Shown here piece after piece: positions 1,057 to 32,590 of a DNA stretch of 32,590 nt. The notes beneath the pieces are model-generated. The model was given only the letters and a program-made list of their open reading frames with translations, did no database searches and was not told the DNA's origin. Source of the DNA: a virus (taxonomy: Duplodnaviria; Heunggongvirae; Uroviricota; Caudoviricetes); IMG/VR virus record IMGVR_UViG_2740892422_000012; one strand, written 5' to 3'. How positions within the stretch are numbered: the stretch's first letter is position 1; every line of letters begins with the position of its first letter. A program made the translations under genes and the position numbers.

Positions 1057-1359
1057 TTAACCAATTTTCCTTTCGGATGGGGGTAAATCCGTTGGCTCTT
1101 GCCCATAGTGTGCGAGAGCCGGAGCTATCTGCCCGGATTCAGGCGCAATTTTTCCAGTCATAAACCACAAGGCATATTTTTCGAACCGCGGGCAATTTAA
1201 GATTTTCATCATTACATCCCCTTTGGGTATGGATTCGCCAGTCTCATAACGCCATAGCGCGTTATGCGGAATACCTATTAACTCCGCAGCCTCATTGCGA
1301 CTTGTAATGCGCTCACTTTCACGCATTAGTTTTAGTTTTTCACCAATCTCCAAAATCAT
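1057..1359 (-). CDS. Immunity repressor, P2 C-like HTH protein
   Basis: ORF 1057..1386(-); segment VMMKILNCPRFEKYALWFMTGKIAPESGQIAPALAHYGQ closely resembles recalled P2 C repressor C-terminus; sits between int and a divergent cox-like gene as in P2. Start chosen at internal ATG 1359 (MILEIGEKL) with GGAG upstream; 1386 is an alternative. Confidence 0.75.
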   Translation of the reverse strand: MILEIGEKLKLMRESERITSRNEAAELIGIPHNALWRYETGESIPKGDVMMKILNCPRFEKYALWFMTGKIAPESGQIAPALAHYGQEPTDLPPSERKIG

Positions 1360-7535: not shown

Positions 7536-8495
7536 ATGAAAATTTGTATCGACGACGGCTCCACCAACATCAAGCTGGCATGGACTGAGAACGGCGAACG
7601 CCGCAACGCCATCAGCCCGAACAGCTTCAAGTCGGAATGGTCTGCGCCGTTCGGTGGCTCGCAGCCTGCGAACTACATGCTTGATGGCGTGCGCTATGGT
7701 TTTGATCCGGTCAGCGATCGCTTTGTCCAGACGACCGACACGCAATACCAGTACAGCGATGTGAATGTCATTGCCATTCATCACGCGCTGGTCAAATCAG
7801 GCATCACGCCTCAGGAGGTGGATGTGGTTGTCACCCTGCCACTGAGCGAGTATTTCGACACAAACGCACAGCCAGACATGGCCAACATCAACCGCAAAAA
7901 AGCGAACGTTATGCGCCCGGTGGAGTACCAGAACGGCGAAGCATTCACTATCCGTAACGTGCGGGTTATGCCTGAATCCATTCCGGCTGGTTTTAAGGCA
8001 CTGGCTGACATGAGTCCGTTTGAATCCCTGCTGATTGTGGATTTGGGCGGAACCACGCTGGATGTGGCAAAGGTTCAGGGGCAACTGGCAGGTATCAGCC
8101 AGGTGTTTTGCGATCCACACGTAGGCGTTTCTCTGATGGCTGATGCCGTGCTGTCGGTGATGGCCACTAACGGTATGCGTACCAGTCACCACATCGCCAA
8201 TACCATTATTGAGCACCGTCACGATGAAGCCTGGCTACGCCAGCACATTCACAATGACGCGCATTACAACAGCCTGATGGCGGTTATTCGTGAAAAGGAG
8301 GAAACACTGAAACAACGCGTGATCCGCGCGCTGGCGGGTTTTTCGGGTTACGGGCGGGTGATGGTTGTAGGTGGAGGAGCGGAGATTGTGGCACCCGCTA
8401 TCCGCGAAGCCTGCGGAGTTAATGCGACTTTCATCGCGGACGGGGTGCCACAGTTTGCTCTGGTTAATGGGCTGTACGCAATGGACAAGGAGTAA
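7536..8495 (+). CDS. parM: ParM/StbA-family actin-like segregation ATPase
   Basis: Motifs IDDGSTNIKL, PNSFK, YSDVNVIAIHHAL, VDVVVTLPL, IVDLGGTTLD, VMVVGGGAEI align with recalled plasmid R1 ParM (StbA); AAGGAAAA RBS. Confidence 0.85.
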   Translation: MKICIDDGSTNIKLAWTENGERRNAISPNSFKSEWSAPFGGSQPANYMLDGVRYGFDPVSDRFVQTTDTQYQYSDVNVIAIHHALVKSGITPQEVDVVVTLPLSEYFDTNAQPDMANINRKKANVMRPVEYQNGEAFTIRNVRVMPESIPAGFKALADMSPFESLLIVDLGGTTLDVAKVQGQLAGISQVFCDPHVGVSLMADAVLSVMATNGMRTSHHIANTIIEHRHDEAWLRQHIHNDAHYNSLMAVIREKEETLKQRVIRALAGFSGYGRVMVVGGGAEIVAPAIREACGVNATFIADGVPQFALVNGLYAMDKE

Positions 8496-8499
8496 ATCA

Positions 8500-8814
8500 A
8501 TGACGACACCAACCAGACGGATAAGTTTCTATCTGAAGCCCGCCGTCGTCAAGAGCGAACGGGAGGCGTGCAGTTACCTCGACAGCCTGCCAGCCTCCGA
8601 ACGCAGCCGCGCACAACGCGCGGCTTTTCTGGCCGGACTGGCTCTTATAAAACGCATCCCCGCGTTGGCGTATTCGCTGGCAGAATGGTCAGAAGACGAA
8701 ATAAGGATGCCACCGCTACCAGTACAGCCTGAAAAACCGGCGAAACCAGCAGCAGACAGCGCCCCCCATATGCAGCAGGTGAAGAAGAATATTCAGGCGT
8801 TTTTTCCGAAGTGA
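8500..8814 (+). CDS. parR: ParR/StbB-like ribbon-helix-helix partition adaptor
   Basis: Start ATG 8500, 5 nt after parM stop. N-terminus MTTPTRRISFYLKPAV...LDSLPASERSRAQRAAFLAGLAL parallels recalled R1 ParR (RRTIAFKLNPDV...LDSIPQGERSRLNRAALTAGLAL). Confidence 0.8.
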   Translation: MTTPTRRISFYLKPAVVKSEREACSYLDSLPASERSRAQRAAFLAGLALIKRIPALAYSLAEWSEDEIRMPPLPVQPEKPAKPAADSAPHMQQVKKNIQAFFPK

Positions 8815-29927: not shown

Positions 29928-31621
29928 AATTGATACAACGCTGCATGATTAATGGCGAACGGGTGGAAATTGCCGATGTAAGCCTTGTTCTCACCCTGAA
30001 TGCCGCCGGTCGTGGCTTCATTTCTGTTAACAATCTGTCATCCGAACACAGCCTTGCCGGCGCAATGGTGCAAATTGATCTCGGTCGTGACGGTGAAGCA
30101 TGGCGCTATTTCTCCGGCTACGTTGAACGCGACCAACCCGCCGAAAATGGTTCGCGCCGCCTTTTTATCCGTGAAGCAGCTGCTGTGCTGGATTTTGATT
30201 TCCCCTGCTCCATGCAACACCCGACGTTGCGGGAGGTGTTAGATAATCTGGGACGACAAAGCGGCATCGTTTTTATCACCCCGGACGCGGATTATGTCAA
30301 CACACCAACCCCCTACATCACCCACAGCGGCAGCGGAACGCAGCTACTCAGCCAGCTGGGGCGCGCATTCAGTATCAGCGATTACGTCTGGCACCCAATG
30401 CCGGACGGTTCTGTATTTGTGGGAAGCGCCGCTGATTCACGATTTGCCAGTATTACGATGCCGGATATTCCGCAACAGTACGCTCTCGGGCAAAGCGGCG
30501 GAAACAGCATCGACATCATGTTCATGGAAACTGTGCGACCGGGCGTGAATCTTCCCGCCGGGCGTATTACCCGCGTAGCCCTCAACAACGAGAAAATGAC
30601 TCTGACGTGGGAGCGCCTTACCGTCACGGGCAGCCCTGTCTCCAAATCACCATTACGCAGACAGATGGAAACACAGTTCCCGGAACTGGCCAGCGGCACA
30701 CTACACACCAGGCTGGCGCGCGTCATTGCACCAACGGAATCCGCCACCCTGGGCGATGTGGCCGACAGCTTCCGTCCACGCTACGCCGTGGACGTGCAAC
30801 TGCTCGATGAGGACGGCAACGATAAAAGCGATACGCCTGTTTACCCGGCAGTCCCACTCCCCGTCCCGATGGCTGGTAGCGAGGCGGGATGTTTTGCCTA
30901 CCCGCCGGCAGGCACCATCGTGGAAATATCTAACATTGAAGGGCGCCCGGATAAACCTGTTATCAGGCAAATCTTACCCGCTGGCCATAACCTGCCTGAT
31001 GTAAAGCCCGGCGAACAACTGCAGCAACAGCGCGCAGAAGTGTTTCAGCGCGTCACGACTGACGGAAGCTGGCACAGAGAAACAGACCAGCAAATCAGGG
31101 AGCAGTCAGCCACCCGCACAATTAACAGTGATGCAGAAGAGCGCACCACAACAACCAGAACAACCACAGTACGGGCAAACGACATAACCAGTGTTCTGGG
31201 AACCAGCAAGCTGGCGGCAGGACAAATAGAGCACCTTACTACCGGCCATTACGCGATCGCAGCCAGCGAGCATATCCAGATGGTAGCGCAGGATTTGCTG
31301 ACTAAACTCAAAGGGGCAATATCCACAATTGAGCAGGACCTGACTGAAAACGTGGGAGGCCGCAGAACATGCCGGGCGGACGGCGGTCTGAAGTTTACAG
31401 CCCCGACAGTATTTATTGGTCGCGGTGGCTCACGGGAAAAATCCGAACTTAATCTGCTGACGTTGTTGATTGATATTCTGGATCTGATTCAATTGCTGGC
31501 CACGCACACTGCAAACCATACCCACAGCAACACTGGCGCACCAATGAACAGCGGCGAACTTGCCGCAGATGCCCTGCAGGCTACGAGCCTGCGCGAAAAA
31601 TACGGGGACCTTATTGCCTGA
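29924..31621 (+). CDS. Baseplate hub / central spike protein (gpD/gpV-like)
   Basis: 565 aa; C-terminus HTANHTHSNTGAPMNSGELAA resembles the histidine-rich spike apex recalled for P2 gpV; last gene of the late operon, followed by a strong terminator. Confidence 0.55.
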   Translation: MKLIQRCMINGERVEIADVSLVLTLNAAGRGFISVNNLSSEHSLAGAMVQIDLGRDGEAWRYFSGYVERDQPAENGSRRLFIREAAAVLDFDFPCSMQHPTLREVLDNLGRQSGIVFITPDADYVNTPTPYITHSGSGTQLLSQLGRAFSISDYVWHPMPDGSVFVGSAADSRFASITMPDIPQQYALGQSGGNSIDIMFMETVRPGVNLPAGRITRVALNNEKMTLTWERLTVTGSPVSKSPLRRQMETQFPELASGTLHTRLARVIAPTESATLGDVADSFRPRYAVDVQLLDEDGNDKSDTPVYPAVPLPVPMAGSEAGCFAYPPAGTIVEISNIEGRPDKPVIRQILPAGHNLPDVKPGEQLQQQRAEVFQRVTTDGSWHRETDQQIREQSATRTINSDAEERTTTTRTTTVRANDITSVLGTSKLAAGQIEHLTTGHYAIAASEHIQMVAQDLLTKLKGAISTIEQDLTENVGGRRTCRADGGLKFTAPTVFIGRGGSREKSELNLLTLLIDILDLIQLLATHTANHTHSNTGAPMNSGELAADALQATSLREKYGDLIA

Positions 31622-31660
31622 TCACCTGGACATAAAAGCCACATAAACGCCCATCACACA

Positions 31661-31685
31661 ACGCACGGCTTCGGCCGTGCGTTTT
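31661..31685 (+). terminator. Intrinsic terminator ending the late tail operon
   Basis: 9-bp GC-rich stem acgcacggc / gccgtgcgt with ttcg tetraloop, followed by a short T-run (ttttc), 40 bp after the hub/spike stop. Confidence 0.65.
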
Positions 31686-31744
31686 CATATCTGCCACCTG
31701 ATTAATGCGTTCTGCGCGCCATTCCGGCGCTGTATGCGCACACC

Positions 31745-31783
31745 GCGTAAACGGTGTGACGTAAAGCGTGAGGTGACGTAAAC
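31745..31783 (+). repeat. Three direct repeats of (G/A)CGTAAA(C/G), possible recombinase arm-type sites
   Basis: gcgtaaac, gacgtaaag, gacgtaaac spaced 13 and 17 bp apart, between the last phage gene and the hok locus. Confidence 0.25.
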
Positions 31784-32162
31784 CGCGCTACCCCCTCCAA
31801 CCCGCGGGTTTTGTGTCGAAACAGTTTTTCAGTTTTCTGCCGTGCAAAACTGACCGCCAGCCCGCGCAGCAACTGAGGAAAAAGCGAAGATCTGAAATTT
31901 CACGCTTTGAAATTTTTTGCAGTTTTCAGAGGGATTTTTACGATCTCATGAATGGCAGGAGAAAGAAAACAGGCTGATATTAAAAGAGTTTTCATACTTT
32001 ACGTGGGACAAGACGCGATCGCGAAAGGATCGCATCAAAAAATCTTCAAACAACGAAGCCAGACGCGGCGCGGCCTGCGTAAGATTGAGAGTCAAAATTA
32101 AACTGAAAAAAGGATCAATACCGCGCCTCGATCGCACATGACGATCTACGCAGCAACAGGAC

Positions 32163-32185
32163 AAAAAAACCGGCGCGAACGCCGG
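32163..32185 (-). terminator. Minus-strand intrinsic terminator
   Basis: Plus strand reads A7 then ccggcg-cgaa-cgccgg; on the minus strand this is a 6-bp GC stem followed by a run of seven U. Confidence 0.45.
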
Positions 32186-32420
32186 CGGAAGCATGTATCA
32201 AATGCGTGACTGAATAATGTCTACGGTCGGGAATTTTATATCAAAAGGCTGACAGGCCTCAACGGATTGAAACAAGGGAAAAAACCAGGCTAGAATTCGC
32301 GCGGGTGCCTTTCGGCTGATGGTCGGAGGGAATACCCGAAGGCCGGATGTGGAAAGGCCCCGGAAAACATTTCTGTTTAACCGAGGCCCTAACATATCTA
32401 CCTTAAGCAAGTGATAGGTT

Positions 32421-32449
32421 AGCGCCTCTCCAACAAAGGAGCAAGCGCT
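32421..32449 (+). promoter_or_regulatory. Hairpin sequestering the hok Shine-Dalgarno sequence
   Basis: agcgc/gcgct and ctcc/ggag pairings place the GGAG Shine-Dalgarno (32438..32441) in a stem directly upstream of the hok ATG. Confidence 0.4.
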
Positions 32450-32590
32450 ATGTCGCAAAAATCGCTTACGGCCATCACGTTCTGCGTGACGGTAATCCTC
32501 ATCATCTGGATGCTGCACGGCTCGCTGTGTGAAATACGGATGAGCTTCTGGGGAGCGGAGTTTGCGGCGTTCTTACAGTGTAAACAGTAA
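32450..32590 (+). CDS. hok: Hok/Gef-family type I toxin (small membrane peptide)
   Basis: Not in the ORF track. 46-aa product MSQKSLTAITFCVTVILIIWMLHGSLCEIRMSFWGAEFAAFLQCKQ has one transmembrane helix and the SLCEIR ... AAFL pattern of Hok-family toxins (closest by eye to HokA). Stop is the last codon of the window. Confidence 0.8.
   Translation: MSQKSLTAITFCVTVILIIWMLHGSLCEIRMSFWGAEFAAFLQCKQ

Follow-up and report, generated by a model that had tools for sequence, protein, structure and literature searches.

Can a hok toxin gene still be expressed when mok, the leader frame whose translation is held to be needed for that of hok, is missing? The question is raised by the last gene of a 32,590-nucleotide (nt) stretch of DNA from a virus of the Caudoviricetes (IMG/VR virus record IMGVR_UViG_2740892422_000012; hereafter the window). 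In a review of type I systems, the translation of mok is called 'absolutely required' for the translation of hok (PMC4147584). An earlier note on the window had described a Hok-family toxin with a sequestered Shine–Dalgarno (SD) sequence and no overlapping mok frame at its right boundary, and had left it undecided whether this locus is phage cargo or flanking chromosome. The comparison of related loci suggests that the classical start of mok is lacking not only here but throughout a prophage-borne Hok subfamily in which the toxin is still under selection. The locus is probably a type I toxin-antitoxin module of the hok/sok type, a moron of a P2-like prophage, that lacks mok and translates hok directly after refolding of its RNA.

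The Hok peptide and the upstream reading frames

The product of hok, MSQKSLTAITFCVTVILIIWMLHGSLCEIRMSFWGAEFAAFLQCKQ, has 46 amino acids (aa), and its assignment to the Hok family in the earlier note, together with the SLCEIR motif, could be confirmed. It matches the Pfam family HOK_GEF (PF01848) over residues 7–44 with 30.1 bits against a curated cutoff of 22. It shares 43% identity with HokA of Escherichia coli K-12 and 39% over 31 aa with Hok of plasmid R1, and SLCEIR is found in both R1 Hok and the window peptide; the alignments to hok loci therefore speak for a Hok-like peptide and not for an unrelated one. The best NCBIfam model is the HokA equivalog NF007290 (35.8 bits). Because this score is far under the equivalog cutoff of 89, the window peptide is regarded as a separate Hok subfamily rather than as HokA. 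It also matches PHROG 251 with 82.8 bits, from which the RefSeq/PHROG label 'MokW-like host killing' was inherited; this label is a misnomer, as the product is Hok and not Mok. In a Hok survey (2026 preprint, 10.1101/2025.08.07.668861), the exact window peptide appears as sequence 1628 in '60%-identity cluster 72'. Two peptides of this cluster were tested there, 72_1621, which is one residue off the window peptide, and 72_1589; 42 of the 45 homologues were toxic, and neither of the two is among the three named non-toxic ones. The gene is thus already annotated and the peptide family already catalogued, and apart from the absence of mok the locus is an ordinary Hok-type toxin/antisense-RNA killer module.

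Relative to 11 relatives from Escherichia, Salmonella and Klebsiella, the ratio of nonsynonymous to synonymous substitution rates (dN/dS) of hok is 0.09–0.44, with dS up to 1.2. Judged by these rates, Hok is under purifying selection across the subfamily without mok and, combined with the activation elements of the mRNA that still covary (see below), the peptide is evidently still made. Database proteins of 59–81 aa were considered as in-frame N-terminal extensions of the mokC type, and all of them proved to be C-terminal read-through or frameshift variants.

In the window, the hok−1 frame, which corresponds to the mok frame of R1, is open from 32407 to 32529 and contains no ATG, GTG, TTG, CTG, ATT, ATC or ATA before the hok ATG. 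TGA 32412 and TAG 32415 shut one of the two remaining frames; in the frame of hok itself, TAG 32420 does so. The statement of the earlier note that the alternative upstream frames hold no start codon, and that a classical mok is absent, is correct even with near-cognate codons included. The comparison was extended to a clade sample of 61 unique loci, for which an intact hok open reading frame (ORF) was required, from viral contigs, species-representative genomes and Salmonella, Klebsiella and Citrobacter assemblies; the genome scan gave 7 loci, the viral scan gave peptides 98–100% identical, and the diversity came from contigs encoding the peptide. No ATG, GTG or TTG was found within 22 nt of the leader tract GAGG, the homologue of the mok SD, in 54 of the 61 loci, and the other seven contained just a TTG 16 nt downstream. 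Likewise, 43 of the 61 loci lack a leader ORF that begins over 20 nt before the hok ATG and extends to the SD; in two of the 43 there is only a trivial GTG at −5, within the SD–AUG spacer. The 18 loci with an SD-reaching leader ORF use six different starts (ATG at −130 or −103, GTG at −145, −104 or −28, and TTG at −38), and insertions or deletions (indels) of 13–16 nt in the loop of the Sok-target hairpin shift the frames freely.

The control loci (R1-type, hokB, hokC and intact hokA) all have an ATG 6–8 nt after GAGGC and a frame running through the hok SD. hokC and the R1-type plasmid locus have GAGGC at −69, followed after 8 nt by an ATG in frame with hok, which the shared stop in the K-12 annotation confirms for hokC. 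In hokB, an ORF of 55 codons begins with an ATG at −58 and crosses the SD, and intact hokA reads GAGGC-UACCCU-AUG with an in-frame mokA. In the window, GAGG is at −67, and the codon aligned with the R1 mok AUG is AUA. This AUA (32394) was rejected as a non-canonical mok start, given that its frame stops at 32412 and that relatives have ACU, CGU or CAU there. As far as the sequences tell, the whole subfamily lacks the classical mok initiation region and has no other leader ORF that is conserved. The window does not represent a single disrupted chromosomal hok pseudogene; its arrangement is a clade-wide, selected state. A full-text literature search returned no paper on hok loci without mok, although such loci may have been described earlier, and the Hok survey left Mok and Sok unanalysed since calling Mok 'is not trivial' (10.1101/2025.08.07.668861). 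The part that appears undescribed is the clade-wide absence of mok in the 61 unique loci with maintained selection on Hok, which makes the subfamily a modestly interesting variant of a known system.

RNA elements of the hok leader and a putative antisense RNA

The features of the module are listed in Table 1.

Table 1. Coordinates of the hok module and adjacent signals in the window
Feature	Position	Strand	Description
Intrinsic terminator	stem 32186->32169, T-run to 32162	−	Real; outside the conserved hok/sok module
hok promoter	32267..32296	+	−35 TTGAAA 32267..32272, 18-nt spacer, −10 TAGAAT 32291..32296
hok mRNA 5′ leader	32303..32449	+	147 nt; fold z = −3.2
tac element GGGUGCCUUUC	32303..32313	+	Pairs with the fbi box of the 3′ untranslated region or with ucb
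ucb/anti-SD box GAAAGGCCCC	32352..32361	+	Alternative partner of tac
Closed-state hairpin GGCCCCGG...CCGAGGCC	32356..32388	+	Hides GAGG 32383..32386; RNAalifold compensatory pairs
Sok-target hairpin GAGGCCCUAAC (32383..32393) + GUUAGCGCCUC (32418..32428)	32383..32428	+	Hypervariable loop; homologous to the target stem-loop of the Rfam model
hok SD hairpin	32420..32450	+	Anti-SD CUCC 32428..32431 with SD GGAG 32438..32441; outer stem includes the A of AUG
hok coding sequence	32450..32590	+	46 codons, ATG start; the stop codon ends on the final base of the window
fbi box GGUCGAAGUGGCACCC	L003 7639..7656, window-equivalent 32638..32655	+	48–65 nt past the window; partner of GGGUGCCUUUCGGCU
Predicted Sok-like RNA	32351..32409	−	About 59 nt: single-stranded 5′ tail, hairpin GGGCCUCGG...CCGGGGCCU, UUU
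Candidate Sok-like promoter	32416..32444	−	−35 TTGCTC 32444->32439, 17 nt, −10 TAACCT 32421->32416; −35 overlaps the hok SD

The hok promoter has a consensus score of 10/12, with 0.6 sites expected in shuffles, and places the start of transcription at about 32303; relatives retain a −10 element (TAGAAT, TAGATT or TAAATT) at an equal distance from GGGTGCC. The Rfam model RF01794 matches 32303..32460 end to end with 44.8 bits (E = 3e-8), the gathering score of 59 not being reached. Although named 'sok', this model in fact describes the hok leader on the sense strand, between +1 and the AUG of hok. It scores hokC with 118, hokB with 110 and the R1-type plasmid locus with 87 bits, versus 33–57 bits for the clade members tested, and the leader is therefore considered a homologous but divergent subgroup. 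The earlier note had called the 300 bp upstream of hok highly structured; this applies to the leader, whereas the preceding part (32153..32302) gave only z = −1.0 and −0.5 on the two strands. The full-length hok mRNA of about 353 nt, modelled with the 3′ untranslated region of E. coli K_EC180, folds with z = −7.4, with the 15 nt at its start paired to the 16 nt at its end.

Covariation was evaluated on an alignment (A2) of 34 representatives less than 97.5% mutually identical and on its RNAalifold consensus. The helix of tac with fbi is compensatory at four positions (UA21/CG12, CG22/GC12, GC21/AU11 and a GU/GC/CG mix). The helix of tac with ucb, which occupies the same tac positions, is 96.4% paired with 20 compensated cells, and none of 500 shuffles was as good. 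The GGCCCC of ucb also pairs with CCGAGGCC in the closed-state hairpin (columns 79–85 with 108–114; GC29/AU5), which is found in the minimum-free-energy folds of both the full-length and the truncated mRNA and the complement of which is the Sok-like terminator stem. Such covariation of tac with two alternative partners appears here as the hallmark of hok mRNA folding logic, as in R1 (PMC9841398). In one Salmonella locus (L098 551..700), unrelated sequence stands in place of the promoter and tac, the hok ORF and the remaining leader being intact; this copy looks decaying or silenced.

The sequestration of GGAG by an upstream CTCC, which the earlier note had placed at 32421..32449, is borne out by a conserved hairpin that is one pair longer (Table 1). 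Its outer stem runs from U32420-A32450 through C32425-G32445, and the SD is held by C32428-G32441, U32429-A32440, C32430-G32439 and C32431-G32438. The hairpin folds with −14.2 kcal/mol (z = −2.3; 5 of 200 shuffles fold equally well), and in the 34 relatives 93% of its cells are paired, with 99.5% in the outer stem. The target hairpin has 96.5% of its cells paired across the same sequences. Because 32420..32428 is common to both, the SD hairpin and the target hairpin are mutually exclusive. In the Salmonella-type sequence L109, three columns that pair with one another (81, 112 and 152) differ at once: ucb and CCUC each have U for C, and GAGG has A for G. The loop of the target hairpin (32394..32409, A2 columns ~120–135) is the most variable stretch of the module, with frequent indels of 1–3 nt, a variability that would fit diversified antisense specificity among co-resident hok loci. 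The consensus also contains a helix between the hok AUG with codons 1–5 (32450..32465) and the codons of AEFAAF (region 32555..32577), with 2 non-pairing cells among the 34 sequences, both in terminal pairs of one divergent relative. The codons of AEFAAFLQ, GCGGAGTTTGCGGCGTTCTTACA, are nearly invariant across genera, synonymous sites included, which is attributed to their pairing with the hok AUG region. This long-range helix is predicted to block initiation as well.

On the opposite strand, a Sok-like RNA is predicted to start at about 32409 and to end at the hairpin complementary to 32356..32388. It folds with −30 kcal/mol (z = −3.9) and matches the annotated SokC (59 nt) and SokB (57 nt) in size and position, and its 5′ tail is complementary to 32390..32409. 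On the minus strand across 32400..32470, where the earlier note had proposed to predict a promoter, a candidate stands at the position homologous to that of R1. It is kept in 34 of 34 sequences (TTGCTC, TTTACT, TTGACT or TTGCCT, 17–18 nt, and TAACCT or TATCCT), the bases of which are also constrained by the mRNA structure, and it is under the threshold of a simple consensus scan. In the R1-type plasmid locus, the corresponding minus-strand position is taken by the Sok promoter, TTGCGC-17-TATCCT, which overlaps the hok SD.

The minus-strand terminator at 32163..32185, with its stem and T-run, exists as the earlier note had described it; the proposal that it ends a Sok-like RNA did not hold, because it is some 165 nt further on than the homologous Sok end and not within the conserved module, homology to phage P88 beginning only at 32279. 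The spacer around it (31622..32302) was found, among all fetched loci, only in the same prophage lineage (L003, L112, L007 and L075). The terminator is therefore not part of the hok/sok module and at most could catch read-through. The spacer from the end of the last tail/baseplate gene (565 aa, ending at 31621) to the hok promoter, 31622..32266, is unusually long and without genes, and no Rfam match was found in it. It contains a promoter-like site divergent from hok (TTGAGG-18-TAAAAT, 32262->32233, minus strand), which together with the terminator could yield a small RNA of about 55–60 nt.

Possible routes to hok translation

In the favoured reading of direct translation after refolding, the sigma-70 promoter at 32267..32296 would drive the ~353-nt hok mRNA from about 32303. 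In the closed form of this RNA, tac would pair with fbi, ucb would hide GAGG, the hok SD would be held in its own hairpin and the AUG would be paired with downstream codons. Slow 3′ trimming, as in R1, would remove fbi, and tac would then capture ucb. The released GAGG tract would start no leader peptide; it would pair with GCGCCUC (32422..32428) and make the target hairpin, stripping the anti-SD arm off the SD hairpin so that hok could be translated directly, possibly helped by 30S subunits on standby at the neighbouring single-stranded tract. The Sok-like RNA would bind the 5′ arm and the loop of the target hairpin and hand the anti-SD back to the SD, and its duplex with the target would be a substrate of RNase III. 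The role of such a module is likely prophage maintenance, lysis timing or an aid in abortive infection. As a tentative possibility, the cluster-72 subfamily of Escherichia, Salmonella, Klebsiella and Citrobacter may have abandoned mok altogether and turned the former mok SD, GAGG, into an anti-anti-SD, making the locus a pure RNA switch with or without standby binding.

Several results weigh against this scheme. The changes seen in the SD hairpin among the 34 sequences are all from G-C to G-U, and there is no double-sided covariation or compensatory proof; the three-way covariation described above is seen in L109 only. The closed hairpin pair beats the target hairpin by 6–9 kcal/mol in full-length, truncated and leader-only RNAs. 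In the models of the full-length and the truncated mRNA, GGAG is unpaired with a probability of no more than 0.01, which rises to just 0.02–0.23 when the tac:ucb helix is enforced, the top value applying to one base, so that the SD is closed in every modelled state. Thermodynamic support for a hairpin-exchange switch was thus not obtained by equilibrium folding. Moreover, mok is needed in R1 in spite of a partly similar CCUC/anti-SD geometry (PMC9841398), and hairpin exchange alone may not suffice. Finally, in 43 of the 47 E. coli-type sequences, the window included, an upstream ORF that begins with ATG terminates at the foot of the SD hairpin or past it.

An SD hairpin of about −13 to −14 kcal/mol that is closed in all modelled states is also what would be expected if the module were disarmed, that is, if hok had become near-untranslatable after the loss of mok and were kept as a remnant or as an antisense anti-addiction decoy against related hok mRNAs. 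Several chromosomal hok loci of K-12 are visibly disrupted (hokA by IS150), and the Salmonella copy L098 lacks promoter and tac. However, a dN/dS of 0.09–0.44 across genera is difficult to reconcile with a disarmed gene, and no internal stops occur in the 61 loci, for which the retrieval itself required an intact ORF. The continued covariation of tac, ucb and fbi implies that the activation machinery is maintained, the hok promoter is retained, and the family is abundant in functional phages, for example P88 and Shiga toxin (Stx) phages. Disarmament is consequently considered very unlikely.

The upstream ORFs open a different route, in which coupling persists via a non-overlapping leader ORF, reaching in the window from ATG 32319 to TGA 32412 (31 codons), or starting from a second conserved ATG in relatives. 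A ribosome that stops 8 nt before the SD hairpin would melt its outer stem and permit initiation or re-initiation at hok, and the Sok-like RNA would block the ORF. The ORFs of the 43 unique E. coli-type sequences have at least 10 codons and end at −38, −30, −19 or inside hok, both ATGs are conserved in E. coli-type leaders, and in R1 translation of mok is required only up to the hok SD (PMC9841398). On the other hand, ATG 32319 has no SD and is 16 nt from the 5′ end, the end points vary (−112, −59, −46, −38, −30, −19, +80 and +131), and the indels of the hypervariable loop ignore the frame. None of the 14 Salmonella-, Klebsiella- and Citrobacter-type loci has an ATG-initiated upstream ORF, though the SD hairpin and a selected Hok are kept in them. 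In addition, because the two ATGs are in different frames and stops occur in all three frames between −46 and −30, an upstream ORF reaching −38 or −30 is nearly automatic and does not require selection. The near-universal upstream ORF of E. coli-type leaders was discounted as a sign of selection on account of this geometry and its absence from Salmonella-type loci, and coupling through a leader ORF seems unlikely.

The predicted leader fold leaves about 16 nt (32405..32420) unpaired directly upstream of the SD hairpin, which suggests a standby control like that of tisB/istR-1 or zorO/orzO. In this case, a 30S subunit on the A/U-rich stretch 32389..32419 would capture transient openings of the hairpin, and the Sok-like RNA, whose predicted 5′ tail is complementary to 32390..32409, would compete with it. 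Type I systems with a leaderless ORF and distant antisense sites use standby binding (review PMC4147584). The predicted Sok-like RNA, however, covers just the 5′ part of the unpaired tract, and this tract is the most variable part of the leader. Standby control in its own right is quite unlikely; as it overlaps with direct translation after refolding, which we continue to prefer, it would be a reasonable complement to that explanation rather than an alternative.

Prophage context and relation to known systems

Over its last 1.6 kb the window matches E. coli K_EC180 with 100% identity, and E. coli ETEC1730 is collinear with it over the full length. The prophage context was read from ETEC1730, as in K_EC180 the expected left flank is chromosomal. 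In ETEC1730, a P2-like prophage occupies the site between pheL and raiA, with the gene order integrase, Cox, replication endonuclease, ParM, ogr, portal, terminase, P2-family capsid and tail genes. It is bracketed by a 20-bp direct repeat, ACAAAAAACGCGCCCGAAGG (the att core), and the right copy (attR) is located 1673 bp past the hok stop, with three genes in between (a TM2-domain gene, a com-like gene and a DNA methyltransferase). Because hok is inside attR by this distance, it is cargo, and the end of the window is a gene boundary short of the end of the prophage. This settles the question of cargo or chromosome raised by the earlier note: hok is a moron inside attL–attR and outside the core phage modules. 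The same Hok family is found at the right end of Salmonella P2-like prophages, after gpD/ogr, and adjoining lom in Stx phages, and P88 carries the same module with 96.8% DNA identity from 32279 onward.

Many IMG/VR prophage contigs (L015, L020, L023, L024 and others) end at the hok stop codon like the window, and prophage-boundary callers apparently cut at hok, losing about 1.7 kb of the element end. In L112 (35220..36776, window-equivalent ~32726..34282), this part contains the TM2-domain gene and a pair resembling com/mom of phage Mu, in which a Com-family regulator overlaps the DNA methyltransferase. At ~7536..8814 of the window (L112 10030..11308), a ParM-type plasmid segregation protein and a partitioning/stability protein adjoin the replication endonuclease, and their sequences hint at a plasmid-like or partition-assisted lifestyle of the prophage. 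Salmonella L095 (701..841 and 1195..1335; also L096 and L097) carries two tandem, diverged hok modules about 490 bp apart, each with its own leader and with a YafO-toxin gene adjacent. In Salmonella L009 (1809..1995) and L105 (995..1192, minus strand), the small RNA STnc540 (Rfam RF02082, 172–186 bits) is found just downstream of the hok module, at the prophage–chromosome junction.

As hok/sok is the textbook type I toxin-antitoxin system, a widespread and selected mok-less prophage subfamily would, if true, show that the coupling ORF is dispensable, and it would offer a natural system for studying how an SD hairpin of about −13 to −14 kcal/mol opens. If the pure RNA switch is true, the coupling held obligatory for hok would have been replaced, with or without ribosome standby. 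If a cryptic upstream ORF covers for the absence of mok, the locus would be one more hok/sok copy. The locus would also matter as a moron of P2-like and Stx phages that serves maintenance or modulates lysis.

The closest model is hok/mok/sok of plasmid R1, together with flm/srnB of F and pnd of R483, with which the window shares a Hok with SLCEIR and the tac/ucb/fbi logic with coupled covariation. In both R1 and the window, GAGG is 67–69 nt before the hok ATG and is sequestered by ucb in the closed form (PMC9841398). The candidate antisense promoter of the window overlaps the hok SD with the −35/17/−10 geometry of R1, and the predicted antisense RNA would likewise be about 60 nt long. Unlike R1, which has AUG, the window has AUA in place of a mok start after GAGG, and stops occur in all three frames before the SD. 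Where R1 has a small hairpin between CCUCUUACC and AAGGAG, the window has one GCGC-closed hairpin, with CUCC paired directly to GGAG. The window locus is on a prophage and R1 is a plasmid, and on the Rfam model the leaders of the clade reach 33–57 bits versus 87–118 bits for the classical loci.

The E. coli chromosomal hokA/mokA/sokA locus provides the closest protein model and also has the target-hairpin arm AGGUUAGC..CUC; however, GAGGC-N6-AUG of intact hokA opens an in-frame mokA through the SD, whereas the window has an invariant in-frame TAG at 32420. Like the window locus, hokW-sokW of the Stx2 prophage Sp5/933W (Takada et al. 2021, PMC8621323) is a prophage-borne hok/sok type I system. 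Identity with HokW was rejected, as HokW is a different peptide of 51 aa (the cloning primer encodes MKQQKAM...) with the leader GGGUGCUUGAGGCUAUCUGCC... (PMC8621323), and the member of the 46-aa family found in Stx phages is at another site, adjoining lom. Finally, tisB/istR-1, zorO/orzO and aapA1/IsoA1 have a structured mRNA that is inert until processed, an antisense site upstream of and apart from the SD and no coupling ORF, and the window locus would have to work in this manner. Their toxins and RNAs are unrelated, and tisB and zorO need 5′ processing, or the antisense RNA overlaps the initiation region more directly; the likeness to these systems would be one of mechanism only.

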